Source: Candidatus Micrarchaeota archaeon (GTDB lineage Archaea; Micrarchaeota; Micrarchaeia; Norongarragalinales; JACRGE01). Taken from it: 47,134 nucleotides of DNA. The notes beneath the pieces are model-generated. The model saw only the letters and a list, made by a program, of their open reading frames with translations. It made no database searches and was not told where the DNA came from. Location of the stretch: assembly GCA_016212465.1 (NCBI GenBank), contig JACRGE010000034.1, positions 1 to 47,134 of the forward strand, in the 5' to 3' direction. Shown in pieces: positions 2,760 to 21,454 of the stretch. Position 1 is the first letter of the stretch. The number at the start of each line of letters is the position of its first letter. Position numbers and translations under genes: made by a program.

Positions 2760-4097
2760 TTGGCTTATTCTAAAGAAATAGACGGAATCCTGAAAGCGAA
2801 AAGGATTTCAGTAGGCGATGGAGCGCGCATAACTACATCGGGAGTAGTATACGAGGGGCTCCTGATGCCAAGGATTGAAGTGGGAGACGACAACGTGCTC
2901 ATTCTGAAACTCCAGTCAGGTTACAACATCGGTCTCGAGTATTCCTCCTCAATGCAAATCGAGAAAATGGAAGCCAATGCTTTTTCAGAAAAACCGACGC
3001 CTCGATACTCCTTAAAGAAAAGCAGCCTACCGAAAATTTCCTTGATTGCAACAGGTGGCACCATTGCCTCAAAGATAGACTACCGCCTCGGTGGCGTAAA
3101 GAGCCTGCTCGAGCCCCAAGAGATATGCCAGGCGATGCCTGAGCTCGTGAATGTAATAAGCTTTAAATCACTTCTTTCGCCGTTCAAGATATTCAGCGAA
3201 AACATGTCCCCCGTAGAGTGGCAGAAGATAGCCGCCCTTGCTGCAAAGGAGCTTAATTCAGACATAAAAGGGCTGGTTATAACCCACGGCACGGACACGC
3301 TTCACTTCACTTCAGCTGCACTTTCGTTCATGCTCAAAAACCTTTGCAAACCCGTTGCACTAGTCGGAGCTCAGCGCTCTCCGGACCGAGGCAGTTTCGA
3401 CGGCGCAATGAACATGGCTTGCGCTGCTCACTACCTGCTCTCGGATGCAGCTGAAGTCGCGATCGTGATGCATGCCACGTCCAGCGACGACTATTGCTAC
3501 GCAATTAGGGGGACTAAGGTGCGGAAGATGCACACTTCAAGAAGAGATGCTTTCCGGCCCGTAAACGACCTTCCGCTTGCGAAGATATATTCCAACGGAA
3601 GAACGGAGTTCTTGAAAAAAAATTACCGTAAAAGGAGTGCGGGCAAGGTGGTTGCGGACACGGCATTTGAGAAAAAAGTTGCATTGTTGAAGGCCTACCC
3701 CGGCTCTGAGCCAGGGCTTGTTGATTTCCTGATCGACAAAAAATACAAGGGGATCGTGGTAGAGGCCACTGCGCTGGGCCAGATTCCGACGTTTACTTTC
3801 GATAAGAAAAACTCTTGGCTACCCCAAATCAAGCGGGCTGTGGAGGAGGGAATCATCGTGGCATTCGCAACCCAGTGCCTCTACGGAAGAACCAATCCCT
3901 TCGTTTACGAGACCGCCAGGGAGATGTACCGCCTGGGAGTAATCTACTGCGAAGACATGCTCCCAGAAGTCGCATATGTCAAACTTGGATGGGTGCTCGG
4001 GCACACGAGAAAAAAGGAAGAGGTAAGAAAACTCATGCTCACAAGCTTGGCAGGCGAAATAAATCCAATGCTTACTGAAGAAGAATTCCTAATCTGA
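2760..4097 (+). CDS. gatD: Glu-tRNA(Gln) amidotransferase subunit D
   Basis: N-terminal KLQSGYNIG, asparaginase motifs TGGTIASKIDY, HGTDT, GAQRSPDRGS; adjacent to gatE; probable TTG start after GGTGGT. Confidence 0.96.
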   Translation: MAYSKEIDGILKAKRISVGDGARITTSGVVYEGLLMPRIEVGDDNVLILKLQSGYNIGLEYSSSMQIEKMEANAFSEKPTPRYSLKKSSLPKISLIATGGTIASKIDYRLGGVKSLLEPQEICQAMPELVNVISFKSLLSPFKIFSENMSPVEWQKIAALAAKELNSDIKGLVITHGTDTLHFTSAALSFMLKNLCKPVALVGAQRSPDRGSFDGAMNMACAAHYLLSDAAEVAIVMHATSSDDYCYAIRGTKVRKMHTSRRDAFRPVNDLPLAKIYSNGRTEFLKKNYRKRSAGKVVADTAFEKKVALLKAYPGSEPGLVDFLIDKKYKGIVVEATALGQIPTFTFDKKNSWLPQIKRAVEEGIIVAFATQCLYGRTNPFVYETAREMYRLGVIYCEDMLPEVAYVKLGWVLGHTRKKEEVRKLMLTSLAGEINPMLTEEEFLI

Positions 4098-4119
4098 TTT
4101 ATTCAATTAAGTGCGTTAT

Positions 4120-5940
4120 ATGAAAGCGAAGATAGGGATAGAGGTCCACCAGAGACTTGCAACTGAGAGGAAGCTCTTCTGTAACTGCAGCAGCACAGTC
4201 TCTAATGAAGTGCCTTGTCTGACTGTGAAAAGGCGAATGAGAGCCGTTGCCGGAGAGCTGGGGGGAGTTGACCCAGCTGCTGCTTTTGAGATGAGCAGGG
4301 GAAGAGAGTTCACTTACCAGCTCTTCAAAAACTCTAGTTGTCTGGTGGAATGCGATGAAGAGCCGCCTCACGAACTGAACAAAGAGGCTCTTGAGACCAC
4401 GCTTGAAGTCGCTCTCCTGCTGAATGCAAAGCGGGTTAATGAGCTCCACGTAATGAGGAAAACAGTTGTAGACGGCTCTGCTGCAAGCGGCTTCCAGAGA
4501 ACGATGTTGGTTGGAACCGACGGAAGCATCAAGACCTCGAGGGGACCTGTTGGGATACTATCCGTCTGCCTTGAGGAAGAAAGTGCAGGCATCGTTGAAG
4601 CCTTTGAAGCAGGCACGGTTTACCGGCTTGACCGGCTCGGAATTCCGTTGATCGAAATCGCGACTTCCTCTAACATCGTCGACGGCGCGCATGCACGCGA
4701 AGTAGCTGAAAAGATCGGCATGTTGCTTCGTTCGACAGGAAAAGTGCAAAGAGGCATTGGAACCATTCGCCAAGACCTCAACATTTCCATCGAAGGAGGT
4801 GCGAGAACTGAGATAAAAGGCGCTCAAGAACTCGAGCTCCTGCCCAAGCTTGTTGACAACGAAATACGTAGGCAGAGCGCCCTCATTGAAATAAAAAACG
4901 AGTTGAAGAAAAGAAACCCAGGGAAGTTCGTATTCGCTCCAGTTGACCTGTCCCATGCATTTTCGAAAACACACTGTGGCATCCTGAAGAAAATCCTGGA
5001 AAGAGGCGGTGCCATAATGGGATTTAGACTGCCTGCGTTCAGCGGCCTCTTGGGAAGAGAATTGATGCCGAACCACAGGTTCGGAACCGAATTGAGTGGT
5101 TATGCGAAGGTGGTCGGGGTAAGCGGGTTGATTCACTCCGACGAAGGCTTGGAGGCATATGGTTTCTCTGAAGCGGAGTTGGCTGAAGTAACCAAGCTGC
5201 TATCCTGTTCTTCAGGCGATGCCTTCATTTTGTGCGGGGGGGAAAGGAAGAGAGTTGCAGCAGCGTTGAAGGCAGTTTTCGAGCGGGCGTTGCAGGCCTT
5301 TGAGGGCGTAGTGAAGGAAACGCGGCGGGCCGAAGGCGAGCTATCTGTTTACCTGCGTCCCCTGCCTGGCTCTCAGAGGATGTACCCTGAGACAGATGTT
5401 ACACCAATCAAAATAGAGCGGAAGGAAGTGGAAGAGATTCGTAAAAAACTGCCTCTTTCTTGCGATGAGAGGAAGAAAAAATACTTTGAGTGGGGCCTCG
5501 GCCAAGTCCTTGCTGAAAAGATGTTGAAGTCACCTGATTTCACCTTGTTCGAAGAAATCGTTGAAAAAACCAGGGCTGAAGGAAAGACTGTTGCAGGCAT
5601 CCTGCTCGAAAGCATGGTTGCCCTGAGGCGGGAAGGCTTTGCAGTGGATTCCATTGAAAAACAGCATTTGATAGAGTTGTTTTCGCTTTACAAAAAGAAT
5701 AGGATTGGAAAAGCAGCCATTGAAGAAGCGTTGAAAGACGTTTCCAGAGGCAAAAGCGTCCAAGAAACCATTAAAGAAAAGAACCTGGAGTTGTTTGACG
5801 ACCCCAAGCTCAAAAAACTCGTTTCCGAATTGCGCTCGCAAGGCATTTCCGATCCAAAGCAGGTATTCAGCGAAATGATGCGGCGCTATAGAATGAACGT
5901 GGATCCGAAGCGCCTTCAGCTTCTGGTGGGCGTGAAATAA
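4120..5940 (+). CDS. gatE: Glu-tRNA(Gln) amidotransferase subunit E
   Basis: KIGIEVHQRL, KLFCNC, MRKTVVDGS..SGFQRT, RLDRLGIPLIEI, RGIGTIRQD, RMYPETD. Confidence 0.97.
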   Translation: MKAKIGIEVHQRLATERKLFCNCSSTVSNEVPCLTVKRRMRAVAGELGGVDPAAAFEMSRGREFTYQLFKNSSCLVECDEEPPHELNKEALETTLEVALLLNAKRVNELHVMRKTVVDGSAASGFQRTMLVGTDGSIKTSRGPVGILSVCLEEESAGIVEAFEAGTVYRLDRLGIPLIEIATSSNIVDGAHAREVAEKIGMLLRSTGKVQRGIGTIRQDLNISIEGGARTEIKGAQELELLPKLVDNEIRRQSALIEIKNELKKRNPGKFVFAPVDLSHAFSKTHCGILKKILERGGAIMGFRLPAFSGLLGRELMPNHRFGTELSGYAKVVGVSGLIHSDEGLEAYGFSEAELAEVTKLLSCSSGDAFILCGGERKRVAAALKAVFERALQAFEGVVKETRRAEGELSVYLRPLPGSQRMYPETDVTPIKIERKEVEEIRKKLPLSCDERKKKYFEWGLGQVLAEKMLKSPDFTLFEEIVEKTRAEGKTVAGILLESMVALRREGFAVDSIEKQHLIELFSLYKKNRIGKAAIEEALKDVSRGKSVQETIKEKNLELFDDPKLKKLVSELRSQGISDPKQVFSEMMRRYRMNVDPKRLQLLVGVK

Positions 5941-8416: not shown

Positions 8417-9040
8417 TTAAACGACTTCCATTACTTTCAGCACATCGCCGCTCCGGTTGACCGCAGCCAGTTTAGAATATTTTCCGTAGCTCCACTCAAC
8501 AACCCACAGCTCCTGAACAGGAAGATCCGACACCAAGCTTTCTACAAGGGAGCATTCCTTGCAGTCTTTCGTCGCCCTAATCTTCTCTGCACTAAAGAAC
8601 AACACACTGGTTTTTACCCCCCTCGCGTTGCAGAACTGATTTTCTATCTGCTTGCTTTTGCCTGAAGCGATAATCGCCTCTTCTTCATAGAGTATAGGCT
8701 TGCCTGCAGTGCAACCCTTGGTTATGGTTTCAGAGCGAAAGCGCAGCGGCATCAACTCATAATACCTGACAAAAACCTTTGGGCAACACGCGTTCAAGGG
8801 GTCTTCAACAGTGATTTTAATATTTATCTTCCAGGCATCACTGCCGTTTCCCGAGAATCCTATTGGCGGAAGCACAGTCACGGAAGCACCAGGATAAGAA
8901 GATTGAGCGTCTTTTTTAACTAAGGCGATTGCTTCATCCATGCTCATGGTCGTTTGGCGAAACGGGGCAAAGGAATAGATTGCGAGAACTAGGAAGATAA
9001 CAATTATCAGTAATACAGCCGGTCTATCCATGCCCTTCAC
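8417..9040 (-). CDS. Membrane-anchored/secreted Cys-containing hypothetical protein
   Basis: N-terminal hydrophobic anchor then a soluble domain with 6 Cys; co-oriented downstream of the pilus locus. Confidence 0.75.
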   Translation of the reverse strand: MKGMDRPAVLLIIVIFLVLAIYSFAPFRQTTMSMDEAIALVKKDAQSSYPGASVTVLPPIGFSGNGSDAWKINIKITVEDPLNACCPKVFVRYYELMPLRFRSETITKGCTAGKPILYEEEAIIASGKSKQIENQFCNARGVKTSVLFFSAEKIRATKDCKECSLVESLVSDLPVQELWVVEWSYGKYSKLAAVNRSGDVLKVMEVV

Positions 9041-9135
9041 AGAAAAGCTACTCCCTTAAAGCTTAATAATTTTTCTTGATGAAGAGAACATCCCATGATC
9101 CGGCGTCATCTGGTTTTCGACACTCTCTCGAAGGC

Positions 9136-9657
9136 TCATCCACAATTGCTTAAGGTAATATCTTGCGCTGGAAATAATATTTTGAGTTGGGGAACGTTCT
9201 GTTGAAATTGGATGTTTATGTTCTGCTGGGTGAAATCCTTCTTTGCTTTTCCCGAAGGCGAAACAACGTAGACAGAGTATTGGACGTTGAAGCTACTTCC
9301 ACAATCCAGATTACTGAAAGAGGACAGTCCAGAATAGAAAACTGAAAAACCGTCTTCGCTCAGGGTGCGATTGGATTCGTCAAGATACTGTTTTATTTTC
9401 GTATTGATGGCATCTGTCGGATTGTTTGGATTACCTGCTGGACAACAGGCTTCAGCAGCAGCATCAACAACTGCGTCAACCACACTCGAGCTAAGGAAGG
9501 GTATTGCATCTTGAAGCCGGTCAGCGGTCTTCTTGGCTTCCATCTCATGAAGCTCTGCTTGAGTGTAGGCTGAGAAAGAGTATACGGAAGCAACCGCAGC
9601 CATTATAACGAAGGAAACCAAAACAGCTGTGATGATGGAGAGATAACCTTTTTTCAT
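9136..9657 (-). CDS. Pilin-like protein (class III signal peptide)
   Basis: MKKG|YLSIITAVLVSFVIMAAV; ATGA overlap with upstream gene. Confidence 0.75.
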   Translation of the reverse strand: MKKGYLSIITAVLVSFVIMAAVASVYSFSAYTQAELHEMEAKKTADRLQDAIPFLSSSVVDAVVDAAAEACCPAGNPNNPTDAINTKIKQYLDESNRTLSEDGFSVFYSGLSSFSNLDCGSSFNVQYSVYVVSPSGKAKKDFTQQNINIQFQQNVPQLKILFPAQDITLSNCG

Positions 9658-10040
9658 GGCGCCACCCAAGCCTCGTGTTTAGAGGAAGCAATGCTTTCCT
9701 GTTGATTCAAACACGCGTCTGTGCCATACACCAACGTAGTTCTTCCACCGCATATCAAGGAGTATTTGTAGTAGATGCTGTGGACTACCAAAGGACCGGA
9801 AAGCGGAGATGAAGTTGAAACCTGGGAGCCAGTATCATCCTTGAATTGATTACGCAATTGTTCGGTGTCTGTAACGCCACCCTGTGTTATTACGAGATAA
9901 TCCCGCGCAAGTGCCTCGAGCGCGACGTATTTCCCTACTTCTGGGGGTTTGCTTGAAAGGAGCACTGCAACAGAGAACACGGAAAAAAGTATGGCCAAAG
10001 CTAGAAGCGAATCCAGTGTGAGAAGAAATCCTTTCCTCAT
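9654..10040 (-). CDS. Minor pilin-like protein (class III signal peptide)
   Basis: MRKG|FLLTLDSLLALAIL; ATGA overlaps on both sides. Confidence 0.82.
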   Translation of the reverse strand: MRKGFLLTLDSLLALAILFSVFSVAVLLSSKPPEVGKYVALEALARDYLVITQGGVTDTEQLRNQFKDDTGSQVSTSSPLSGPLVVHSIYYKYSLICGGRTTLVYGTDACLNQQESIASSKHEAWVAP

Positions 10041-10378
10041 CCACACACCTTTACTTTTACGACATCCCATCCGCTCTGGTCTGCTTTAGCGACAAGGCGC
10101 GTGGCATAAAAAGTGTTTTTTTCACAAGAGCATTGGCTCAAGGTATCTGTTTCCTTGTATTTTATGCAGGAATGGGGCGGAGACGGTGTTGGCGCAGGCA
10201 AGCTTGAAACGATGGCTTCTGCAATGACGTCCGCTTCGTTTGAAGAAAGCTCGTTTTGGAGGTTGTGGCGCCGTTGATTGAATTCATACATGTTCAAGAC
10301 AGCCCCCAATACTATGGTGAAGACAGCAACTGAAATAAGGAAATCCATGCTGAATATCTGCGCCCTCTTTTTTCCCAT
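10037..10378 (-). CDS. Minor pilin-like protein (class III signal peptide)
   Basis: MGKKRA|QIFSMDFLISVAVF; GGTG SD. Confidence 0.85.
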   Translation of the reverse strand: MGKKRAQIFSMDFLISVAVFTIVLGAVLNMYEFNQRRHNLQNELSSNEADVIAEAIVSSLPAPTPSPPHSCIKYKETDTLSQCSCEKNTFYATRLVAKADQSGWDVVKVKVCG

Positions 10379-10392
10379 TCCAACACCATTTA

Positions 10393-10821
10393 TCAACACG
10401 AGCCCATGCTGAACTTGACTGTTCCAACTTTTTTTATGCATACCTCTCCTGCGTCGTTGACGCGCTGGTCAAGGCAGCCAGAGAAAACATCTGCATCCAA
10501 GTTGCATGCCGCAGACCCGTCAGCTGAAACATCGTAAACCAATGAATTAATTTTCACTTTGTTGCCCTCTGTTTTTATGGAGTATACAACTGGCCTGTTT
10601 TCGTGGATGATGCAAGGAAGCCTGTATGTCACTTCAGTTTCGGAGACGCATACTCTGTTCGCGAGGAGAACGAGCCCGTTTGCCAGCAGCTTCTCTTGGT
10701 TGTAGAGCGAGGAAGAGGATTTGGTTAACAGGTTGAGGTAATTAGCCAGCCAAAGCATGAGCAACAGTAGGACTGAGAAAACAAAAAACAATTCAAGGGA
10801 AGCTTGAGCGCGCACATCCAC
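10393..10821 (-). CDS. Pilin-like protein (class III signal peptide)
   Basis: RA|QASLELFFVFSVLLL with Q+1/E+5. Confidence 0.85.
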   Translation of the reverse strand: MDVRAQASLELFFVFSVLLLLMLWLANYLNLLTKSSSSLYNQEKLLANGLVLLANRVCVSETEVTYRLPCIIHENRPVVYSIKTEGNKVKINSLVYDVSADGSAACNLDADVFSGCLDQRVNDAGEVCIKKVGTVKFSMGSC

Positions 10822-10913
10822 ACCTGTAATGAAGTGAAGGAATTATGAGCTGGCTGTTATTAAACTTTTATCGTCCTTGGTGCATTGCGTATAAACATGT
10901 AGATAGCATTTCG

Positions 10914-12101
10914 CTAGCTTAGAACTCCCTGGATAAAATAATTCAGGCCAGAGAAATAGAGTAAGGACGGAACGATGAGCGCGCCCATGGAATAGCTGCG
11001 TTTGAGCTTCAGCAGCGGAGGCAATAGCCCCAAGGGAGTTGCAAACGCCATTATGAATAAGCCAGCGAATCCACTGGTAAAGAAAACTGCTGCGGAGAGA
11101 ACCAAGAGAAAAAACAGGTTCAGCTTAAGGAAGTTGAAGGAGTAGAGAAAACCCACGAGCCGCCTGTACGTGAGGAGAAGCAATGCGAGGGAGAGAAAGA
11201 AGGAAACCGCTGTCGCTATCACGATTAACAAAAGCGCTGGGGAAGAATGGAGCATGTCTTTGAGGACAACAGCTGCTCCAGTCCTTGCCTTGCCGATGGT
11301 GAAGACGGCAACAAAGTCAAAGAAGAGCTTGGACGCGACAAGCGATGAATTCAGCACAAGAAAAGACTCGGGGCTGCATTCAAGGAAGATGAAGACCAAC
11401 GCGCTCAAGAGAGCTGGGTTGATTGCAGGAAATAAAACTGAGAGCGAGCCCAGTACGCAACCTGTAAAAACGAGTTTCTTGCTTACCCCTGGCCAAGGGG
11501 CCTCCTCTTGCTTCGGAAACTCGCTTCTTCCCTGGAGGGAAAGCAGGATGGAGGAGACACCGAACAATCCTGTGAGGAGGGGAAACAGCGCATCCGAGGA
11601 GAAAGAGAATGAAAAGAATCCGAACAAGCCCGATAAAAGAAATATTGAAGCAGACAACAGGATGTTTCCCAGAGTTTTCTCGGAAAGGAAGAACGCAATC
11701 AGCAAGAGCAGGAGCACTGGGAGAAGAAGTGGCTTCAGGGAAGTGAACAAAGGCGGCAACAGAATCAGCACGAACGGAAAGAGGATGAAAGACAGGAGAA
11801 GAGAGTGGAAGAACGAGGACAGGACGAGGTTCAGCGCCAAAAATCCTTTTCCTTCCAGCACGAGTTTGTGCGCTGGGAGTACAGTAACCCCCTGGTCGGC
11901 TGATGGAATGCAGAAGAATACAACTGGAATACTCTCAAAGACGAGGTGTGAGAAAGCAACGCCTGCTGCGAATAAACCAAGCGCAAGGGAATCACTGAAA
12001 AAGCCTTTCGCCAGCTCCATCAAGAGGTTCGTGTGAATGAACGGGAAAATCCCTAGGATACCGACGAGGATTCCTATGAAAACAAACAACAAGGGATTCA
12101 T
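10914..12101 (-). CDS. Polytopic membrane protein, probably archaeal TctA-like (tripartite tricarboxylate transporter permease) family
   Basis: ~11-12 TM segments; G..P.IHTN, VLPAHKLVLEGKG, LFPLLTGLFG and ARTG match my recollection of the archaeal TctA/DUF112 family. Confidence 0.75.
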   Translation of the reverse strand: MNPLLFVFIGILVGILGIFPFIHTNLLMELAKGFFSDSLALGLFAAGVAFSHLVFESIPVVFFCIPSADQGVTVLPAHKLVLEGKGFLALNLVLSSFFHSLLLSFILFPFVLILLPPLFTSLKPLLLPVLLLLLIAFFLSEKTLGNILLSASIFLLSGLFGFFSFSFSSDALFPLLTGLFGVSSILLSLQGRSEFPKQEEAPWPGVSKKLVFTGCVLGSLSVLFPAINPALLSALVFIFLECSPESFLVLNSSLVASKLFFDFVAVFTIGKARTGAAVVLKDMLHSSPALLLIVIATAVSFFLSLALLLLTYRRLVGFLYSFNFLKLNLFFLLVLSAAVFFTSGFAGLFIMAFATPLGLLPPLLKLKRSYSMGALIVPSLLYFSGLNYFIQGVLS

Positions 12102-12496
12102 TTCAAGACATTCACCGAATCAATATCCAAAGGAACTAACTCCAACTCTCCCCCGTATTCTTTTAAAACTCCTTTCACCTCCACCAACCCCCCGTTCTTT
12201 ATTCCAGCTGGGTTAATGGAACCCTCTCGCATTCTCTTGGCAAGCGATGAAAAGATTGCTACCTGAACGCAACGAGGATATTCGCATAGCTTGAAGAACG
12301 TGTTTCCGTTCTTTGAGTAAATCCCTGAAACCCTTCCCTTCACCAACAGCATTCTCCCTATATCCTCTTCGCTGATTTCATTCAACTTTTTTTCAGTCGG
12401 GCCACTTGATTTAAGGAAGACAACGAGCAATAGAATTCCGACAAACGCTAGGCCCAGCGATAGGTAGACATAATGCCTTTCACTCAAACACTCCAC
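12098..12496 (-). CDS. Membrane-anchored OB-fold protein
   Basis: N-terminal TM then OB-fold pattern (DIGRMLLVKGRV..G.TFF.L..VEVKGVLKEYGGELEL). Confidence 0.8.
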   Translation of the reverse strand: MECLSERHYVYLSLGLAFVGILLLVVFLKSSGPTEKKLNEISEEDIGRMLLVKGRVSGIYSKNGNTFFKLCEYPRCVQVAIFSSLAKRMREGSINPAGIKNGGLVEVKGVLKEYGGELELVPLDIDSVNVLK

Positions 12497-12497
12497 C

Positions 12498-13010
12498 TCA
12501 CTCGACTCTGCAGAGCCTTGCTTCAGAGAATAAGTTCTTCTTCAACAAGATTTTAACACTTTCGCCTGGCGAAACCCTGCGGGATGGAACAGCGTAAACG
12601 CCTTTGAAGTTGTGGGAAATGCTTTCCTCCATTTCAACTACTGCATAACCATTGGAATAGCCGATTGCCTTCCCGAATGCATGCGACGGCACGACCAGTT
12701 TCCTGAGGACGATGAACAACGCTAGAAAAAACACGATGAAGAAAATTGATAAAGCAGGTAGAAGAAATGGATTCAAGATAAAGGCGTTGAAATAAATTTT
12801 GAACAACAGGAAGAGGATGGATACCGCTGAGAAAACGAAGACGAAGAAAAACGCGGCCTTCCTCTCATACTGTTTTAGCTTGAAGGCGATCCAGATGCAA
12901 GCAGATGAAATAATTAGCACAGCTATAAATGAAAAGACGATGTTGTAGAATGAAAGAAGGAAGGAGAACAAGAACATGAGAACCAATACAAGTTGGAACC
13001 ATAGCTTCAT
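12498..13010 (-). CDS. Pilus-locus membrane protein (DUF2101-like)
   Basis: 4 TM segments followed by a small beta domain (FGKAI..YAVV..KGVYAV..GESVKI); position in the locus. Confidence 0.6.
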   Translation of the reverse strand: MKLWFQLVLVLMFLFSFLLSFYNIVFSFIAVLIISSACIWIAFKLKQYERKAAFFFVFVFSAVSILFLLFKIYFNAFILNPFLLPALSIFFIVFFLALFIVLRKLVVPSHAFGKAIGYSNGYAVVEMEESISHNFKGVYAVPSRRVSPGESVKILLKKNLFSEARLCRVE

Positions 13011-13026
13011 TTCAAATCCACTTTAT

Positions 13027-13398
13027 TCAATCCAGTTGAACTGAGTAAACGTAGTTCGGTGCAGAAAACTGTTCCTTACCTTCAATATCAAGGGATGGAG
13101 AAAACGTGTCTCTTATCTTGCCCAAAATCCTTTGCCTCAACTCGTTTTTTTCTCCAATACTTAAGTCAGCAGTTGCTATCCCCGGCTTCAGAACCACGCT
13201 CTTTCCATCTATTGCATAATTCATTTCAGCGAACGAGAGGGAGTGCTCTTGAGCATATTCTAGGGCACCAACTCTTGCTGAAGAAATCGCGAGATTGAGC
13301 TCGGATTCCCTGAGGCCAGGAAGCAAAACAAAGGAAATGAATAGGACGATCAAGCCGACCACTATGATGAACTCAATCGAGCTCTGTGCCCTTTGCAT
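13027..13398 (-). CDS. Pilin-like protein (class III signal peptide)
   Basis: MQRA|QSSIEFIIVVGLIVL. Confidence 0.87.
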   Translation of the reverse strand: MQRAQSSIEFIIVVGLIVLFISFVLLPGLRESELNLAISSARVGALEYAQEHSLSFAEMNYAIDGKSVVLKPGIATADLSIGEKNELRQRILGKIRDTFSPSLDIEGKEQFSAPNYVYSVQLD

Positions 13399-13438
13399 CA
13401 AAACCACTTTTCATAAGTCAACCATCATTCTTGCCACA

Positions 13439-13864
13439 TCAACTGATTGTTTGGCAGGTTACCTTTATTGTCTTCAAGGGAGCATCGTTGAAAGCAGTGA
13501 AGCGAATCCATCCTGAAGAATAACAGTCTTCTTCAAATGAAACATCTGGAGACAGGAATTGGTCGCCGTACACTTTTTTCCCGGATTCCTTTTGTAAGCA
13601 ATATGATTCTCTACCATCTCTCAGAAAGCAGACCATGTCCTTTGGAACGAATACATCCTGTGTTATGCTTGTACCAGCTCCTCCAAGCTTCGCATAGTTC
13701 ACTACTCCAGAGACCGTGTCCGCACAGGATTTGGCGAGAGCCGCTGCATCCAACTGCCGGATGTACTTCATTTGCTCCAGTGCGTTAGCCAGCAGCATGC
13801 TGATCATGGCCATCACTATCGCTAGGATGAGGAAGAACTCAACTGAAAGCTGGCCTTTCTTCAT
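13439..13864 (-). CDS. Pilin-like protein (class III signal peptide)
   Basis: MKKG|QLSVEFFLILAIVM; GGAGG SD. Confidence 0.88.
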   Translation of the reverse strand: MKKGQLSVEFFLILAIVMAMISMLLANALEQMKYIRQLDAAALAKSCADTVSGVVNYAKLGGAGTSITQDVFVPKDMVCFLRDGRESYCLQKESGKKVYGDQFLSPDVSFEEDCYSSGWIRFTAFNDAPLKTIKVTCQTIS

Positions 13865-13947
13865 CAGATTATCCTCCCATAGCACAAACTGCATTCCAAC
13901 AAATCAATTCCTGATAAATAACCAAAACAACGCCATCAACCATTTTG

Positions 13948-15036
13948 TCAGACTACCTTCCAAAACACACTCAACACAAAGCCCAGGAACAAAACCGGCG
14001 CAAAGGCAATGGTTTCCCTCACACCCAGATACTTTAATGCCCCCAGCTTTTTTAACTCTTTGATTTCCTTCCCAGAAATCCCTGCTGCATTCAATGAATC
14101 CACCACAATCTTGTTTCTCGGAAGAAAGAAACCGCGCCCCCGCACAAGGCTTCCCAGCGCTTCCGCCATAGTCCACTTCATAACCCTGCCTTTTTCTAAG
14201 TAAACGGTTTCAGCCGGCACCATTCCCTTCCTTAAATCACGGAGCGCAACCCATTTAACGAGCACTCGAGAGGAAAAAACCTTCAAGACGTTCTTTAGAA
14301 AAGCCAGTGTAATAATTGAAGCGAAAACAAGTGGAAAGACTGAAATAGTTGAATTAAAGTCCAAGAGAAGGCCGGCAAAGAAAAGCAGGAACGGAACTGG
14401 ATTTGGTTTTTTAAGAAGCGGGTTTAAGAAAAACCCTGCAACAACCAAGAAAACCAATGCAAGCAGTAAATCCAGCCGAGAGGCTAGGAGGAACAAGGGA
14501 GTTGAAAGCAAGGAATTCAGGAGAGAAGCCTCGATTAACTCAATTTTAAAAACATTCCTTCTCAGCTTAACCAATTGCTTGAAGTGAATTACTAAAAGCC
14601 CTAGTGCCAGCATGAAAGCTGAATTCAGGAAGATAGAGAGAAAAGAATAATAGTTGTAGTCTGCAAAAAGAGGGAATGCTGCGGAAAGCGCCCAAAAGAA
14701 CTTGGCGTCTCCTCCTCCCCAGACCCCTAGCTTAAAGAGAAGGTAAGAGAAAAGCAGGGAAAGCAAGAGAAACAAGATATAGGTTGCTGAAAAAATTGAT
14801 GAAAACACTGAAATAAAAATGGAGGACAAAAGCAGCAAGTAATTGAGGTTGTTAGGGATTCTTCTCTCTTTCACATCAAAATATATTGCTGCAAGCGAGA
14901 ATAGGGAAACGACGAGAAATGGAATAAACAGCTTAATGGAAGAAAGCACTGAGGAAACCATGAGAAGAAAGGGAGAAGAACTAAAAACGGTGGGGAATGG
15001 AGTGCTGAAGACAGGGCAGAAGGGGTTTAATCCCAT
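13948..15036 (-). CDS. EppA-like A24 prepilin peptidase
   Basis: Catalytic aspartates in YFDVKERRIPN and WGGGDAK; extra TM segments and C-terminal LRKGMVPAE..AAGI..IAFAP, as in the larger EppA type. Confidence 0.9.
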   Translation of the reverse strand: MGLNPFCPVFSTPFPTVFSSSPFLLMVSSVLSSIKLFIPFLVVSLFSLAAIYFDVKERRIPNNLNYLLLLSSIFISVFSSIFSATYILFLLLSLLFSYLLFKLGVWGGGDAKFFWALSAAFPLFADYNYYSFLSIFLNSAFMLALGLLVIHFKQLVKLRRNVFKIELIEASLLNSLLSTPLFLLASRLDLLLALVFLVVAGFFLNPLLKKPNPVPFLLFFAGLLLDFNSTISVFPLVFASIITLAFLKNVLKVFSSRVLVKWVALRDLRKGMVPAETVYLEKGRVMKWTMAEALGSLVRGRGFFLPRNKIVVDSLNAAGISGKEIKELKKLGALKYLGVRETIAFAPVLFLGFVLSVFWKVV

Positions 15037-15046
15037 TGCACCACTT

Positions 15047-15214
15047 TTACCTCAACAGCATGGCTATGGTTGCATCGCGTTCCATCGCAATATGCGCTGC
15101 TACAGTGTCAGTGAACGCCTTTACGTTGATGGCAATCGCAATCCCCACTACCACGATAAGCAATCCAAGTGCAACTAGCAGGATATACTCCGTCGCCGCC
15201 TGCCCCCGCTTCAT
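15047..15214 (-). CDS. Short pilin (class III signal peptide)
   Basis: MKRG|QAATEYILLVALGLLIVVV; TTTAAATA box at ~15263-15270 upstream. Confidence 0.87.
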   Translation of the reverse strand: MKRGQAATEYILLVALGLLIVVVGIAIAINVKAFTDTVAAHIAMERDATIAMLLR

Positions 15215-15327
15215 GGAACGCCTCTTCAACAGCATACAGACCCAAATAGATTAGACTGGAGGTATTTAAAACTTGGCTACATAGCTTTATTTTATGAAAG
15301 TAAAATGATAACAAAAAGGTAAGAAAG

Positions 15328-15690
15328 TTACTTACCACAACAAGTCAAGCAGAATCCACAAAACCCCGTGCCTGTCGTCGCCCACTCATAACTCGTTGAT
15401 GTCGCGGTACACAATCCGGCGGTGGTATCCCCCTTTATTCTATAGCCGTTGAGTCCCTTACAAGAAGGCACAGAAGCGTAATCGACGACACCATCGGCTT
15501 TAAAATTTCCACTAGTATCCCAGCACCCACTGCTGGACGCAAGCTGAGTATAGCAAGCTTGTTTCATAGCTTGGGCAGGTCCGGTCTGTGCAAGCGGTCC
15601 CCTCAATAGGACGACGATGATGACGACAATCAGCAAAACTCCGGCTAGAAGCAGGATGTATTCAAAAGCACCTTGACCTTTCTTCATCAT
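15328..15690 (-). CDS. Pilin, likely the major subunit
   Basis: MMKKG|QGAFEYILLLAGVLLIVV; GGTGAT SD; own promoter and T-rich terminator; 8 Cys. Confidence 0.9.
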   Translation of the reverse strand: MMKKGQGAFEYILLLAGVLLIVVIIVVLLRGPLAQTGPAQAMKQACYTQLASSSGCWDTSGNFKADGVVDYASVPSCKGLNGYRIKGDTTAGLCTATSTSYEWATTGTGFCGFCLTCCGK

Positions 15691-15760
15691 ATCACCAACC
15701 ATTTTTTCATTCAACTTTAACTAAACCAACAAAAACGACTATAGAGAGAAATGCGGGGGG

Positions 15761-15816: not shown

Positions 15817-16326
15817 CTATGGTGTTTTGCAACAATGCGGAGTAGAAGAATCGCATAGGCCTTGAAGCTCGGAGCCGCTGGAGCAGGCACTGGCTTGGCA
15901 AACGCCGCCAATCTTTTCGCAGACTGGACCACAGCACACCTTGTCTTTCGGGTCGCAGATGCCTGCAAGAGAAAAGCCGCTGGCGCACTCGGCTCCCCCG
16001 CATACTCCGTTAATGAGTTCGCAGGGAGGTCCGCAGTAGTGGGTGGGGTCGCCCTCGAGTTTGACGCCGCAGCGGGATGCGAGCCGTTGGTTTACTGGAG
16101 TTGCATCAGGCATCCACTCACCGTGTTCGTCAAAGCAGCCGGAGCGCAAGTCAGAGTTCAGTCTTTGCCTGCAGTAAGCGTAATAATCTTGGATGGTTTT
16201 GTTCTCAGTTGGAAAGAGAATGCCTCCTCTAACGACTACGGTTACGATGACTACGATGAGTATTCCGACGCCGATGAGCAGCAGGTACTCTACGGAAGTT
16301 TGGCCCTTCAACGAAACACCTTTCAA
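15817..16326 (-). CDS. Pilin with two C-terminal beta-defensin-like six-Cys repeats
   Basis: KG|QTSVEYLLLIGVGILIVV; two copies of C-x6-C-x4-C-x9-C-x6-CC. Confidence 0.88.
   Translation of the reverse strand: MKGVSLKGQTSVEYLLLIGVGILIVVIVTVVVRGGILFPTENKTIQDYYAYCRQRLNSDLRSGCFDEHGEWMPDATPVNQRLASRCGVKLEGDPTHYCGPPCELINGVCGGAECASGFSLAGICDPKDKVCCGPVCEKIGGVCQASACSSGSELQGLCDSSTPHCCKTP
15829..16023 (-). repeat. Tandem 34-aa-period Cys-rich protein repeat (2 copies)
   Basis: CELINGVCGGAECASGFSLAGICDPKDKVCC and CEKIGGVCQASACSSGSELQGLCDSSTPHCC. Confidence 0.9.
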
Positions 16327-16424
16327 CCCATTACGTATCTTTTGATGAAGAACGTGATTAAAGCAACTACTCCGACTACCGAGCCAATCAGCAGCAGGTA
16401 TTCAACTGCGGTTTGTCCCTTCAT
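16323..16424 (-). CDS. 33-aa minimal pilin (not in the ORF track)
   Basis: MKG|QTAVEYLLLIGSVVGVVALITFFIKRYVMG*; GAGGTG SD; stop overlaps the TTG start of the next pilin. Confidence 0.85.
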   Translation of the reverse strand: MKGQTAVEYLLLIGSVVGVVALITFFIKRYVMG

Positions 16425-16514
16425 TTCACGCACCTCGCTACTGTAAATACGTTCGCTTCATTAAAAAACATTTCATAACCCATAACCCTCTTCTTTAGAC
16501 TTCGCAAAACCATT

Positions 16515-17534
16515 TTACATGATGCAGGAAATCGAGGAGCCAATAATCAAGTCGCTGAAGATCTTTCCTCCCTCGAACATGAGGATGGTGAACAACACCA
16601 TGATTGGAACATAAAGAATGTATTTGAAGGGGTCTCCTTCTCGAATGATTCCTACTGCAATGAGGGAGACAATTGCTTGAGCGGAAAGGAATACTGTGAG
16701 GAGGAGGTTGAGCCAGCTTAAATCTAGTGGAGAGGGGATGCATGCGTCTGCAGAGGGGTTGAAAACCATTTTCTGGGAAGTGCAGTAGGCTGCTTTCTGC
16801 TGGGGCAGCAGGTTGGAGACGGAAATAGTTGTTTGGCCTGTTGCAGCAATCATGCCGCTTCCCATGTAACAAACGATGCTTAAGGAAAAACCGAATATGA
16901 ATGGCGAAAGCAACAGCGTAGAAATATACAGGAACATGACGTGCATGGTTGTCCTGGAATATCTTTCCCTCTTCACCCTGAGGATTTCCTTGGCGTCGTC
17001 TGCAATGGAGTTCATTACATCAGCTAAGCCCGCACCTGCCTTGCGTGCATCCAATATGATTGTAACGCATCTCTTGAAGATGATGGAGCCCGTTTTTTTG
17101 GCGGCGTCTGTGAGGACTGCATCAAACTCCCTGCCCTCCCTCAACTGCTTTAAAGAAACCTTGAGGTCGACGCTGATGGGACCGTAATCCGAGTTTGCCG
17201 CTTCTTCAAGCGCGCTCTCCGTTGTTCCACCTGACTTGAGGACTGCTGACATGTGCTTTAGAACATCGGGAAGAGTAGAGTCAATCTGAGAGATTCTGGC
17301 GTTCCTTAAGGTGATGGGGAAGCTGACTATGAGGCTGAGGACTGCAATGAAGCCGATGACTGCAATGAGGGGCTTGAGGTTCAGGACGAGGAATATGAGC
17401 GCGGTTGCCAATGCAATAAAGAAGATGACTGCAATGAATTTCTTGAAGCTGAACCTGAATCCCGTTCCCTCGTAGTAAACCTCCATTTTCTTGTACTCTT
17501 CCTTCAACCTTGCCTTGATTTCGTTGGAATTCAT
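16515..17534 (-). CDS. Type IV pilus platform protein (TadC/GspF family)
   Basis: LPDVLKHMSAVLKSGGTTESAL..DYGPIS..AGAGLADVM; multiple TM segments; next to the ATPase. Confidence 0.92.
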   Translation of the reverse strand: MNSNEIKARLKEEYKKMEVYYEGTGFRFSFKKFIAVIFFIALATALIFLVLNLKPLIAVIGFIAVLSLIVSFPITLRNARISQIDSTLPDVLKHMSAVLKSGGTTESALEEAANSDYGPISVDLKVSLKQLREGREFDAVLTDAAKKTGSIIFKRCVTIILDARKAGAGLADVMNSIADDAKEILRVKRERYSRTTMHVMFLYISTLLLSPFIFGFSLSIVCYMGSGMIAATGQTTISVSNLLPQQKAAYCTSQKMVFNPSADACIPSPLDLSWLNLLLTVFLSAQAIVSLIAVGIIREGDPFKYILYVPIMVLFTILMFEGGKIFSDLIIGSSISCIM

Positions 17535-17538
17535 TTCA

Positions 17539-18594
17539 TCACGCTGGTTCTATCCTCCTTATTATGAACAGGATGAGTCCCATCGCCGCAAACACGAGGA
17601 GGAAACTGATGTAGACGATGCTCATCGGAATCTTGCCGGCGAAAATCGGGAGCTGTATGATGGCTGACAGAATCGTGATGGTAACAGGTGCAACCACTGC
17701 AACCATTATGAACACTACGTTGATAATGTTCAGTTTTTCAGTGAAATCCCGTATGAGCATCCTCGTCTCAAACGAAACATCTGAGGCGATTCCCGACATG
17801 ATGTCGGAAAGGTTTCCGCCAGTCCTCAAAGCCCTGTTCATCTGCATAATGGTTTTCTTCAATCCCTTTGAGCGAGTTGAGTAAGCGAGTTTCATGAACG
17901 CTTCTTCAGTGTTCATCCCGCCATCAATGTCCCGCAACACTTTTTTGATTTCCATGCTGAGCAACCCGTAATCAGCTTCAGCAATGGACTGCAACGCCCT
18001 GTGAAAGCTTACGCCAGACTTCAGTTGGGTTGCGAGGTGCCTCAACGCAAAGGGAAGCTCCCTGTCTATCTTGAATGCGCGGTTGGTTGCCCTCATGGAA
18101 GGATAGAGGAGCGCAAGCAAGGACAAGCCGATGAAAACAAACAAGCCGATTAAGGGTGCTAGCGCAGCCAGGGATATGTCCGCGATTGCAACGCCCAAGG
18201 TGATGAGAAGCAACATGATCAACAAGGAGGAAAGCAAGGCAATGGATGAAACTGCCACCAGGTATGCCTCCACGCTGAGGTCAATGCCTGCAGCCGCAAG
18301 ATCGACTTTCATGTTTTTTGTGACTGGAATGGAGGAAAGGAATTCAGCTATCCTCAGTATAACTCCCTGCAAGGAAGAGTATACTCTTCCAACCAAGGCA
18401 AGCCCCTTTGCCGTAAATGTCTCGGAACTGACTTTTGAAAAGTCAAGCGGCAATTCCTTGGACTGGCCTTCAAGCCTTGCCTTCAGCTCTGCGACCTTTC
18501 CTGCTGGAGCTGGTGCAACAGGCCTCTCTTTTTCCTTGAGCCTGCTTATTATCTTCTCGAGCTTTTCCTTTTCTTTATCCACTTCCTTATCCAT
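17539..18594 (-). CDS. Type IV pilus platform protein (TadB/C, GspF family)
   Basis: IDRELPFALRHLATQLKSGVS..DYGLLS..TGGNLSDIM. Confidence 0.92.
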   Translation of the reverse strand: MDKEVDKEKEKLEKIISRLKEKERPVAPAPAGKVAELKARLEGQSKELPLDFSKVSSETFTAKGLALVGRVYSSLQGVILRIAEFLSSIPVTKNMKVDLAAAGIDLSVEAYLVAVSSIALLSSLLIMLLLITLGVAIADISLAALAPLIGLFVFIGLSLLALLYPSMRATNRAFKIDRELPFALRHLATQLKSGVSFHRALQSIAEADYGLLSMEIKKVLRDIDGGMNTEEAFMKLAYSTRSKGLKKTIMQMNRALRTGGNLSDIMSGIASDVSFETRMLIRDFTEKLNIINVVFIMVAVVAPVTITILSAIIQLPIFAGKIPMSIVYISFLLVFAAMGLILFIIRRIEPA

Positions 18595-18822: not shown

Positions 18823-20391
18823 TCACGTCTTCAGCTTCTTCTTCAACACGTAGTTTTGGGTGATTTCGCAAACGGAATTGATGTCGCGAACGCCTTTCTT
18901 GCTCATTTCCTTGAGTTTGTTCTCTCGCTCAGAGAGCTCTTCCAAGAGTTCTTTCTTCGTCAAGCCCGTGTACTTCGTAAGCAACTGCAGGAAATTGGAT
19001 GAAAACTCTGTCTTCTCTTGCGTGTCCTTGAGCGGGTTCCAGGAGTAAAGCGTTTGCAACTCGAGCTTGTCGTTATTGCCCGCAATCACTTCAGTCAGCT
19101 CAGTGATTCTCCGAATGGTTCCCCGCTTCCTGTCGTGAATCCTTTGCTCCATGAGAATGAAATTCAGTGCAGAGAGCATGACGTGGGGAACGCTGATGGG
19201 CGGACTTTCAAGCCGGACGAGAGTCTCCCTGGCTGAATTAGAGTGCACTGTCCCCAAACAACCCTTGTGGCCTGTGTTCATGGCAGCGAACATCGTGAAC
19301 CCCTCTGCTCCACGGATTTCGCCCACAATGATTCTATCCGGTCTCATCCTCAACGAATTCTTTACTAAGTCGTTCATCGTGATTTCGCCTGTTCCCTCCA
19401 GTCCAGGAGGCCTGGTTTCAAAGCGGACGAGATGCGGGAGGGGCAGGTTCAACTCCGCTGTGTCTTCTATTGTAACAATGCGTTCGTCTGCAGGGACGAA
19501 GGAAGCCAAGACGTTGAGGGTCGTGGTCTTGCCTGCGGCAGTTCCTCCAGCAACCAGTATGTTTGCAGGATAAGCTCCGAGCCCATCAACGCACATCCAA
19601 AGAAAGGCAGCGAGCTCGCTGCTCAATGTATTCAGGTTAATCAAATCGATTATCGTGAACGGGTCCTTCCTGAATTTCCTTAAGCTCAACGTGGAGCCGT
19701 CGAGGCTAATCGGAGGAAGGGTTGCGTTCACTCTTGTTCCATCAGGCAGCCTGGCGTCAAGCAACGGAACCTGGAAATCAATTCTCCTTCCAACGATGCG
19801 CGCAACTCGTTCTATAAGGTTTCTGATGTCTTTGTCTTCGTAGAAAACGATGTTGGTTTTCATCATCTCATATTTCCTGTGGTGCACGTAAACAGGTCTG
19901 TTGGAGCCTATAATCAGGATGTCTTCCAGGTTGTCGTCCCTCACCAAAGCATCTATGAGGCCATAGCCGATCATTTCCTTGACAACAGCGTCCGCATAGA
20001 ATTCCTTCGCGTGAATGGGAATCTTTAATTCAGGCGAGGCGTCGATGATCTTCATTATCCTGTCAAAGTATTTTCTCCGTCTCTCCTCTTCTGTCCCGAA
20101 GTACCCTGGCTCTGTTTCAATGACGCTGGCAGCGATTTCAACCAATGCTTCTATGAGCGCCTTTTCCTCCCCTCTATAGTGTGGAACCGGGACTTCGTAC
20201 TTGAAGAGCGGGTCTCCTTGGACCTTGTATATTCTGACATCGCCATATGAGTCAACAAGAGTCTTTTCCTCTTTTTTTTCTTCTGGAACTGCCTCTTTTT
20301 TCTCTGCTTCCTTTTCAGCAGTAGCGATTGCTTGCGCCTTGCGTTCTTCCTTTGCTTTCTTGAGGAGTTCTTCGAGGTAACTCATGCTCAT
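18823..20391 (-). CDS. Type IV pilus assembly ATPase (CpaF/TadA/VirB11 family)
   Basis: DARLPDGTRVNA, Walker A GGTAAGKTT, IEDTAEL, LRMRPDRIIVGEIRG, MNTGH..TVH. Confidence 0.96.
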   Translation of the reverse strand: MSMSYLEELLKKAKEERKAQAIATAEKEAEKKEAVPEEKKEEKTLVDSYGDVRIYKVQGDPLFKYEVPVPHYRGEEKALIEALVEIAASVIETEPGYFGTEEERRRKYFDRIMKIIDASPELKIPIHAKEFYADAVVKEMIGYGLIDALVRDDNLEDILIIGSNRPVYVHHRKYEMMKTNIVFYEDKDIRNLIERVARIVGRRIDFQVPLLDARLPDGTRVNATLPPISLDGSTLSLRKFRKDPFTIIDLINLNTLSSELAAFLWMCVDGLGAYPANILVAGGTAAGKTTTLNVLASFVPADERIVTIEDTAELNLPLPHLVRFETRPPGLEGTGEITMNDLVKNSLRMRPDRIIVGEIRGAEGFTMFAAMNTGHKGCLGTVHSNSARETLVRLESPPISVPHVMLSALNFILMEQRIHDRKRGTIRRITELTEVIAGNNDKLELQTLYSWNPLKDTQEKTEFSSNFLQLLTKYTGLTKKELLEELSERENKLKEMSKKGVRDINSVCEITQNYVLKKKLKT

Positions 20392-20395
20392 CACT

Positions 20396-21454
20396 TCAAG
20401 ACGCGGTTGGTCCGCTGATGCTGACTGTAAGCTCTCTCTTCGGCGGACATGCATGGGAGACTATGAGCTTGCCGAAAGTACTCTCAGTAACAGGCGCGAT
20501 CTGGACCCAGAAGTTGAGCTCTTCGCCTGGCGGGATAGAGTTTGCGTCAAATGAAATCAGTTTAACTAGCTCCGCAAGATTGTCCGACACTTTTACTGAG
20601 AGCTCCGTGATTTCACTTTCCCCCAAATTCTTTATTCTGACAAGGTTTGTACAAGGTGGATTCCTGCAATCGATGTTTCCGCCTTCCGGCGAGATGACGG
20701 AAAGCTGAGGTTTGTCAGTGGTTGTCAGAGAAACTGGAATGGAAACCTCCGTGTACTTAATCCTCAACTCTCCCTTCACCTTGCCTTTACTACCTAGTGC
20801 AACCACTGGGACTTGAAAGTTACTCTCGCCCTTTGGCCCCAGCGGGCTCGGCTGGGTTTTAATCAACCTCTCCAGCTCGCCAGTGCCCACGAACTCTACA
20901 CTCGCTGAAGCGTCTCCTTTGTTCTTTACAGTGACGGTTAACATCTTCGTGCAGCCTGCGCCCACTGTCACATCAATGGACGGCGCGTTTTCTATTGCAA
21001 GATCCCAGTTCCTTGGAACCTCAATTGTTTCTGACTTGCTTTCGCCTGAAGCCAGGCTAATGGTTCTCGGTATACCCGCGTAGTTCGACCCGACGTCGGC
21101 CACTATCGTAAGGTCCTTTTCAGATGGAACCAAAAACTCTGCAATTCCCTTTTCAGTCATCTTGGATTCTATATTATTGCACATGAAGAAAAGAAAGCAG
21201 TTCCTTGCAGTTTCCCCATCCTCTAGGATCTCTACGGTTCCATCCAACGCTTTTCCCGAGTCTTTTTCAACCAATGCAACTGTGAGGGTGGCTGGCTTTG
21301 GATACAAGAAAAAATACCAGACCAGAGAAAGCAATATGATTACAAGGATGGAGAACTTGATTACGCCGAATCTGCGAATCCAAAGAGCCAAGTCTGAAAA
21401 GGCGTTTTTCACCTTGTCCAGGAAGCCTTCTTCAAAACCGTATTCCTCTTCCAT
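20396..21454 (-). CDS. Single-TM protein with beta-rich Ig-like extracellular domains, first gene of the pilus operon
   Basis: TM near the N-terminus; repeated V.VKN.G / IKNLG motifs typical of Ig/CARDB-like folds. Confidence 0.72.
   Translation of the reverse strand: MEEEYGFEEGFLDKVKNAFSDLALWIRRFGVIKFSILVIILLSLVWYFFLYPKPATLTVALVEKDSGKALDGTVEILEDGETARNCFLFFMCNNIESKMTEKGIAEFLVPSEKDLTIVADVGSNYAGIPRTISLASGESKSETIEVPRNWDLAIENAPSIDVTVGAGCTKMLTVTVKNKGDASASVEFVGTGELERLIKTQPSPLGPKGESNFQVPVVALGSKGKVKGELRIKYTEVSIPVSLTTTDKPQLSVISPEGGNIDCRNPPCTNLVRIKNLGESEITELSVKVSDNLAELVKLISFDANSIPPGEELNFWVQIAPVTESTFGKLIVSHACPPKRELTVSISGPTAS

Follow-up and report, generated by a model that had tools for sequence, protein, structure and literature searches.

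Trans-defensins, the beta-defensins included, are described in passages of PMC7203481 as having arisen exclusively in animals, and their hallmark is given there as three antiparallel strands braced by three disulfides. According to a section of the duck beta-defensin paper (PMC3480435), six cysteines and the GXC motif are what is conserved across all beta-defensins, and in the vertebrate family (Pfam Defensin_beta, PF00711; human beta-defensin 1, PDB 1IJV) the cysteines are spaced C-x6-C-x4-C-x9-C-x6-CC with both G-x-C motifs. Two tandem, divergent units of this type are carried in one chain by AvBD11/gallinacin-11 (PDB 6QEU; excerpts of PMC9138766). Disulfide-rich defensin-type modules occur in prokaryotes too, in Myxococcus xanthus and Actinomyces; the excerpted text of PMC11561630 reports bacterial cis-defensins only, and the word archaea is absent from the paper. 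Here we describe a gene at 15817..16326 on the minus strand of a 47,134-nucleotide stretch from a Candidatus Micrarchaeota archaeon (GenBank assembly GCA_016212465.1, contig JACRGE010000034.1; the whole stretch is hereafter the window). It encodes an archaeal type IV pilin that ends in a tandem of 31-residue units with the beta-defensin signature. Such a protein is previously undescribed: our searches of the literature on prokaryotic trans-defensins, archaeal or DPANN beta-defensins and cysteine-rich DPANN pilins found no such fusion, just as an initial inspection of the letters, the sequence-only reading, had known of none. With a probability of about 0.55, we read the product as an accessory pilin that bears lineage-specific disulfide modules, convergent with beta-defensins in their signature.

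The open reading frame (ORF) and its parts, with residues numbered from the TTG at 16326, are as follows.

15817..16326, minus strand: pilin ORF, 169 residues from the TTG at 16326, the likelier product being 164 residues from the TTG at 16311
16303..16326, minus strand: class III (prepilin) leader, residues 1-8, assigned from Pfam PF04021 and the family motif
16225..16302, minus strand: hydrophobic N-terminal alpha-helix of the mature pilin, residues 9-34, assigned from an AlphaFold2 model and the sequence
16024..16224, minus strand: small pilin head, residues 35-101, with cysteines 52, 64, 86 and 98, assigned from the family alignment and identity with a related protein, P0003
15931..16023, minus strand: unit 1, residues 102-132, C-x6-C-x4-C-x9-C-x6-CC in translation, below the Defensin_beta cut-off
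15922..15930, minus strand: G-P-V linker between the units, echoing the G-P-P after Cys98
15829..15921, minus strand: unit 2, residues 136-166, C-x6-C-x4-C-x9-C-x6-CC, matched by Pfam Defensin_beta
15820-15828, minus strand: K-T-P tail after unit 2
15817-15819, minus strand: stop codon

The second TTG, at 16311, is the likelier start, since GGTG lies 5 nucleotides upstream of it; the protein-library form of the pilin (P0002) has 164 residues, begins MKGQ and uses this codon. The leader matches Pfam Class_IIIsignal (PF04021) at 24.2 bits, the cut-off being 23.7, and the N-terminus reads MKG|QTSVEYLLLIG, with the [KR]GQ..[FL]EY leader motif that is common to the whole family alignment. Prepilin cleavage is predicted between G8 and Q9, which would put a glutamate at position +5 of the mature protein. 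In the full-length AlphaFold2 model a helix spans residues 11-34, with a predicted local distance difference test score (pLDDT) of 73-84. The head ends in the C-terminal C-G-P motif of the family, at C98-G-P-P, and the protein has 16 cysteines in all (52, 64, 86, 98, 102, 109, 114, 124, 131, 132, 136, 143, 148, 158, 165 and 166). With PF04021 above its cut-off, the helix, and a pilus operon around the gene, the initial assignment of a class III leader and an archaeal type IV pilin holds.

The two 31-residue units had been described from the letters with their spacing and a G-x-C before Cys2 and Cys4, and every one of these details is found in the translation (G107-x-C109, G122-x-C124, G141-x-C143 and G156-x-C158). 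A regular-expression search of the 15,109 six-frame ORFs of at least 40 residues in the organism's own 1.2 Mb assembly found the exact spacing twice, both times in the pilin gene; 5.7e-4 occurrences would be expected by chance from the cysteine frequency. The two units are true homologous repeats, 9 of their 25 non-cysteine positions being identical (p = 1.2e-4 with shuffled non-cysteine residues). At the DNA level they are 54% identical, the product of an old duplication. They had been called not strongly cationic and are in fact acidic, with net charges of -2 and -1 and an isoelectric point (pI) of 4.7 for residues 98-169; the net charge of a third unit, found in P0003, is about -4 by count from its sequence.

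Defensin_beta is the sole cysteine-rich Pfam family that matches the pilin, and it was found independently of the initial claim of a full beta-defensin cysteine signature, which it upholds for unit 2. Against the curated gathering cut-off of 21 bits, unit 2 scores 25.4 bits when searched alone (expectation value, E, 1.4e-5), 21.2 bits within the whole protein and 24 bits when the genome is searched in six frames. Unit 1 stays below the cut-off at 14.6 bits (E 0.034; 12.4 bits in the six-frame search) and also weakly matches two platypus defensin-like families (E 0.067 and 0.15), and the unit of P0003 has no Defensin_beta match in the Pfam scan. Hence the Pfam search which the sequence-only reading had suggested as a check speaks for one of the three units and not for the other two. 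Since units 1 and 2 share the framework and lie about 11 bits apart, the framework by itself can account for no more than about 15 bits, the rest of the score of unit 2 coming from some similarity outside the cysteines; the Defensin_beta score rests mainly on the six cysteines and two glycines. As these eight residues, by the account of the duck paper, are all that is conserved in the beta-defensin family, the units fit that family's own sequence definition, and this definition carries little information.

To set these scores in context, PF00711 was searched in six frames against 401 genomes of the phylum. Something at E <= 0.05 was returned in 73 of them and a score above the cut-off in 2; the match of the source genome is the only one that covers model positions 5-36, and no full-length match was found in the 400 others. 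Three further matches were set aside as noise: that in genome G335 (22.5 bits) spans model positions 9-29 only and has an in-frame TGA, that in G138 (20 bits) is antisense to a 400-residue gene, and that in G216, a genome flagged as unpublished, reaches 16 bits. Among 14 control genomes none exceeded the cut-off. Furthermore, in a phmmer search of all PDB sequences the best matches of the 75-residue C-terminus were human beta-defensin 1 variants (E 0.035-0.13), with a proteasome subunit, evidently noise, in their company; across both units an alignment with the double defensin gallinacin-11 could be made, at a non-significant E of 6.2. A profile of the three known units gave 8 PDB matches at E <= 10, all of the beta-defensin type (six beta-defensin 1 variants, platypus defensin-like peptide 1 and Defensin-BvL), at E-values of 0.7-2.4 that are likewise non-significant.

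The units are exceedingly rare, being present in two proteins among about 15 billion. An exhaustive HMMER search over 1.84 billion representatives returned three proteins, namely the pilin itself, P0003 and P0004, the last a pilin without the unit. P0003 has 139 residues, is 50% identical over residues 7-100 and is a singleton on a 9-kb contig; it carries one unit, C-x6-C-x4-C-x8-C-x6-CC, with six cysteines, both G-x-C motifs and a CCKT tail. In a library of 5.8 billion clusters, the whole pilin retrieved itself only, P0003 as a query retrieved P0003 only, and the alignment of the units retrieved P0002 and P0003 only. No carrier was found in 40 other genomes of the order, where the four non-self matches are weak (E 0.019-0.47), three having an in-frame TGA and one covering 25 residues, and the unit profile has no credible match in 400 further genomes of the phylum, where four partial matches cover 15-29 of its 40 positions at E 0.007-0.0096. 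In the survey of archaeal pilins that the sequence-only reading had suggested as a check, 29 related loci lack the exact spacing and P0003 has x8 in its third loop. A scan of metagenome contigs revealed one related pilus locus, L019 (a platform protein fragment, two small pilins and a peptidase), without the cysteine unit, and scans of genome contigs and viral contigs found no related locus.

The fold of the units is less certain than their sequence. In the full-length AlphaFold2 model, built from a four-row alignment, the mean pLDDT is 49 and falls to 31-47 over the units, and this model was dropped for statements on fold. When unit 2 was folded with the three-unit alignment, the best of five models reached a pLDDT of 72.4 with a predicted template modelling score of 0.41, and the other four reached 56-61. 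In the best model Cys2, Cys4 and Cys5/6 lie in strands (model positions 13-14, 27-30 and 35-38) and Cys3 in a short helical turn; the three strands of human beta-defensin 1 lie at the corresponding cysteines. A Foldseek search of this unit model against the PDB gave no match at E <= 10. Seven representative rows were retrieved as structural neighbours of the ESM Atlas model, at template modelling (TM) scores of 0.37-0.43 normalized by query length: three vertebrate beta-defensin clusters (GLL11, beta-defensin 110-like and beta-defensin 116), an arthropod cluster that is partly Defensin_beta (17% of members) and partly tick inhibitor I68, and three clusters of archaeal hypothetical proteins. 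The GLL11 cluster, the first row at TM 0.42, we take to be gallinacin-11. Feature searches of the ESM Atlas yielded nothing usable for the pilin or P0003. Because both predictors were trained on solved defensins, the likeness in predicted fold is not independent of the signature. Of the structural prediction that the sequence-only reading had proposed, strands at Cys2, Cys4 and Cys5/6 thus appear in a single model of pLDDT 72, with no PDB match by Foldseek; the evidence for a beta-defensin fold is weak, and the 1-5, 2-4, 3-6 pairing is a prediction. It is somewhat less than an even bet that the units share the beta-defensin fold.

The rest of the protein is far from rare. The N-terminal 97 residues have matches in 79 of 301 genomes of the class with the source genome counted: besides the source, 60 of the 67 genomes in its order have one, as do 18 of the 233 from the remaining orders. 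A typical family member has about 100 residues, conserved cysteine pairs in the head and the ending C(x)CGP.P; as the head of our pilin ends at C98-G-P-P like these members, the units are an add-on beyond a complete pilin. Among the 72 distinct pilin-like ORFs collected from 29 loci by a leader regular expression, 17 have six cysteines and 4 have ten or more. Cysteine-rich C-terminal add-ons of other kinds are found in L036 (476 residues), L056 (193 residues, a Pro/Thr linker followed by cysteine modules), L045 (146 residues) and L040 (109 residues), and in a Pfam scan of four such relatives the only matches at E <= 0.1 were the signal, Flp/Fap and three weak ones that fall far short of their cut-offs. 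Since relatives carry different cysteine-rich add-ons, C-terminal cysteine modules are a recurrent and variable theme of the family. The defensin spacing itself occurs in none of the 29 related loci in any of the six frames. Derivation of the units from the family's own C-terminal cysteine segment, hinted at by a MAFFT alignment, was rejected, as hhalign aligns only a four-column CCGP at a probability of 0.9%. The family also includes long, cysteine-poor pilins of about 220-310 residues (L046, L049, L053 and L058) with a common stretch of the F(F/R/E)(D/E)NFD type.

The gene lies in an archaeal type IV/Tad-like pilus operon on one strand, with genes for a Peptidase_A24 with Arc_PepC, T2SSE and two T2SSF proteins on the same strand as the pilin and within 5 kb. 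Its neighbours, in minus-strand order, are as follows.

20396-21454, minus strand: 352-residue protein at the head of the operon, no family, faint immunoglobulin-like/CARDB-type hints at E 0.02-0.06
18823..20454, minus strand: T2SSE/FlaI/TadA-type assembly ATPase (Pfam, 166 bits)
17539-18594 and 16515-17534, minus strand: two T2SSF-type platform proteins (Pfam)
16323..16424, minus strand: 33-residue Flp-like pilin ORF directly upstream, starting MKGQT.VEYLLLIG like the defensin-signature pilin
15328..15714, minus strand: paralogous pilin of 128 residues with a cysteine-rich head, without the defensin-like unit (Class_IIIsignal, 30.9 bits)
15047..15235, minus strand: short helical Flp-like pilin of 62 residues (Pfam, 17 bits, below cut-off)
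13948..15036, minus strand: prepilin peptidase, Peptidase_A24 with an archaeal A24 C-terminal domain (43.8 and 28.1 bits)
13439-13894 and 13027-13407, minus strand: two pilin-like ORFs with a Q..[ILV]EF leader and a hydrophobic stretch (the first at 18.4 bits, below cut-off; the second by eye)

The 33-residue ORF consists of a class III leader and one hydrophobic helix only, its stop codon overlaps the TTG at 16326, and Class_IIIsignal scores 27.5 bits on 16338-16430; it may represent either what is left of a duplication or a Flp-like pilin of minimal size. The paralogous pilin is 38% identical to residues 6-96 of the defensin-signature pilin, and the 62-residue pilin has homologues in L019 and in L032-L060 and is kept beside the peptidase in related loci. 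Downstream of the peptidase, at 8417-13894 on the minus strand, there are at least six further small ORFs with pilin-like leaders (RAQSSIEF, RAQASLEL, KGQLSVEF), which suggests that minor pilins are numerous here.

The rest of the window holds archaeal genes (GatD/GatE, ABCE1, an RFC subunit with an intein, CDC48, aRF1 and Elp3). The intein-bearing gene, for the RFC small subunit, lies at 30688-33057 on the minus strand, and its Intein_splicing match covers residues 157-544, between the AAA parts. The assembly measures 1.2 Mb at 91% completeness, and both sequencing runs containing the stretch are labelled groundwater metagenome and come from one study, with no RNA run listed among them; the DPANN-like host proposed at the outset is in line with such a small-genome archaeon. 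Type IV pilus components are reported missing from DPANN genomes in a portion of a groundwater preprint (10.1101/2020.05.14.094862), with which the order-wide pilin family does not fit, provided the organism is DPANN, as its genome size, the groundwater label of the runs and the taxa of the Atlas neighbours suggest. Logan contigs of run X1 cover 15821-16002 with 1 differing letter and 15985-16263 with 6 differing letters, at a depth of 4-5. Decoded, the variant of the first contig is silent at Cys136, and those of the second are silent at Gly99 and Pro100 and give the changes T95K, H96Y and D74E; they may reflect a co-occurring strain or an assembly error, and since X1 is possibly the window's own source, it lends no independent support.

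Regarding the capacity of the organism to form disulfides, searches of the genome, which is 91% complete, revealed neither VKOR nor Thioredoxin_4. Contig C6 encodes at 4047-4949 (locus L061, 1441-2343, minus strand) a 300-residue protein that has a membrane anchor at its N-terminus and CPYC in a thioredoxin-like domain; it matches Pfam DSBA at 33.4 bits summed over the frame and is a candidate extracellular disulfide oxidoreductase. Moreover, contig C44 carries at 2123-5581 on the plus strand an open frame of 1,153 residues with 130 cysteines, a hydrophobic N-terminus and an HEFGH (HExxH) motif. Since both the DSBA-like CPYC protein and the 130-cysteine frame are encoded, extracellular disulfide-rich proteins are plausible here. 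The large frame contains many repeats of the C-x5/6-C-x3-C-x5-CC-x5-CC type and is possibly a secreted metalloprotease; the 109-residue C-terminal tail of the L040 pilin is a cysteine repeat similar to those of this frame.

From these components the following course of events can be proposed. The neighbouring A24 prepilin peptidase would remove the short leader at G|Q, and the hydrophobic helix would allow the subunit to be incorporated, by the FlaI/TadA-type ATPase and the two T2SSF proteins, into a filament that probably consists for the most part of the operon's short Flp-like pilins. The two modules, each most likely with three disulfides, would project from the pilus as rigid, protease-resistant knobs that bind a host cell or another surface or brace the fibre. 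Given their acidity, the modules would be expected to serve adhesion or stabilisation rather than membrane killing. As for the origin of the units, the modular and variable C-terminus, the very narrow distribution and the groundwater-labelled runs fit a local invention far better than a transfer from an animal, and the units have probably converged on the beta-defensin signature by independent invention. Several points weigh against an accessory pilin with lineage-specific, convergent modules. Unit 2 exceeds Pfam's curated Defensin_beta cut-off, and its resemblance to human beta-defensin 1 (E 0.035) extends beyond the bare framework, with G-G-x-C, S-A-C, Q-G-x-C and a terminal C-C-K in common. 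Beta-defensin clusters are among the nearest structural neighbours of the Atlas model. No donor or precursor of the units was found inside the pilin family, given the hhalign result of 0.9% for CCGP only. Furthermore, we infer cleavage, assembly, disulfide formation, exposure on the pilus and an adhesive role from the parts present, and the accessory rather than major standing of the pilin is suggested only by the shorter Flp-like pilins in its operon.

The first of these points would be expected if the units were true homologues of animal beta-defensins or big defensins, acquired by horizontal transfer or from a much older ancestor and then fused to a pilin. To the score of unit 2 above the gathering threshold one may add the beta-defensin 1 variants as best PDB matches (E 0.035-0.13), gallinacin-11 spanning both units (E 6.2), the beta-defensin type of all 8 PDB matches of the three-unit profile and both G-x-C motifs in register in the three known units. 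The profile matches are, however, non-significant (E 0.7-2.4), and as unit 1 (14.6 bits) and the P0003 unit (no match) fall below the cut-off, the extra similarity is confined to one unit. In the 400 other genomes six-frame noise, in the form of partial matches, goes up to 22.5 bits. In addition, the units are acidic, are known from two proteins and come from groundwater-labelled runs, trans-defensins are described in parts of PMC7203481 as exclusive to animals, and the gene's other features are typically archaeal, as is its operon. Homology with animal defensins is thus unlikely, and we consider an acquisition followed by fusion to a pilin very improbable. The opposite view, that the match of frameworks is coincidental, that the cysteines are connected or the units folded in another way, for instance as a small knot of knottin-like or other type, and that "defensin-like" describes a spacing only, has more in its favour. 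In Foldseek the unit model matched nothing in the PDB, a single one of the five AlphaFold2 models has a pLDDT of 72 while the others stayed at 56-61 and the units of the full-length model at 31-47, the Atlas TM-scores are all below 0.5, the third loop of P0003 is x8 and not x9, and the information held in common with beta-defensins amounts to eight positions. The strands of the unit model do fall at Cys2, Cys4 and Cys5/6, and three of the seven Atlas rows are beta-defensins and a fourth 17% Defensin_beta, with the reservation that the predictors were trained on defensins. We regard such a coincidence as unlikely, yet as an alternative to be taken seriously.

Other roles of the cysteines were weighed as well. 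Twelve of them lie within 65 residues in an organism from groundwater-labelled runs, and with VKOR and Thioredoxin_4 not found in the 91%-complete genome, they might bind metal (zinc or Fe-S-like clusters), in which case the C-terminus would be a metal-binding or redox-active pilus tip suited to reduced groundwater. The units, however, have neither a His- or Asp-rich ligand pattern nor CxxC pairs, the cysteines are even in number (16) and occur as conserved pairs in the family head, G-x-C is a motif typically seen in tight hairpins braced by disulfides, and a membrane-anchored DsbA-like CPYC protein is encoded, so that we hold metal binding improbable. Still less can be said for a membrane-active or antimicrobial effector that is delivered by the pilus or released by proteolysis against a host or competitors, which would accord with the resemblance to defensins and with the episymbiotic lifestyle generally assumed for small-genome archaea. 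Net charges of -2, -1 and about -4 (P0003 unit), a pI of 4.7 and the lack of a dibasic or other processing site between head and units speak against it, and killing is unlikely because of the negative charge and the covalent fusion to the pilin; this reading we hold extremely improbable.

Our preferred reading, convergent and lineage-specific modules on an accessory pilin, can be carried one step further. The units might fold as trans-defensin-type domains with three strands and three disulfides. An archaeal lineage would then have arrived at this fold on its own and would present the acidic tandem on its type IV pilus for binding, a proposal that we put forward tentatively and with rather more doubt than conviction. 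If true, this would be the first scaffold of this type outside animals and a further convergent origin of the "defensin" scaffold, and the cysteine and glycine signature of beta-defensins would stand for a physically favoured solution and not for animal ancestry. The only prokaryotic defensins that we found in print are the bacterial cis-defensins (excerpts of PMC11561630). The archaeal signature may extend the scaffold to a third domain of life by convergence, or it may reveal that a family signature of such low information yields false positives in metagenomic data, and either outcome would be useful for studies of defensin evolution and for the mining of antimicrobial peptides. Moreover, interchangeable cysteine-rich C-terminal modules are candidates for the cell-surface recognition that small-genome archaea presumably need. 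The case rests on two sequences, and we therefore give it moderate weight at present, more if the trans-defensin-type fold holds true.

Compared with the vertebrate beta-defensins, with which they share the cysteine spacing and both G-x-C motifs, the archaeal units are acidic instead of cationic, they form the C-terminal domain of a pilin and are not the product of a secreted propeptide, and their host is an archaeon. AvBD11 resembles them in the tandem arrangement of its divergent units, but it is a free egg protein of birds and the likeness remains at the level of the framework only. The invertebrate big defensins likewise combine an N-terminal domain with a defensin-type module; the archaeal N-terminus, a class III-signal helix with a head, is unrelated to the big-defensin N-domain, and no link in sequence was found. 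The bacterial cis-defensins, according to the excerpted PMC11561630, belong to the cis (CS-alpha-beta) superfamily, have another framework and are free peptides. The protein itself belongs, within the Flp/Tad-type and archaeal type IV pilins more broadly, with the order-wide class III-signal pilins (L032-L060, P0004 and the paralogue at 15328-15714), which have the same leader, helix, head with cysteine pairs, CGP motif and A24/ATPase/T2SSF context, whereas the defensin-like unit is carried only by the defensin-signature pilin and P0003, the others bearing unrelated cysteine-rich add-ons or none.

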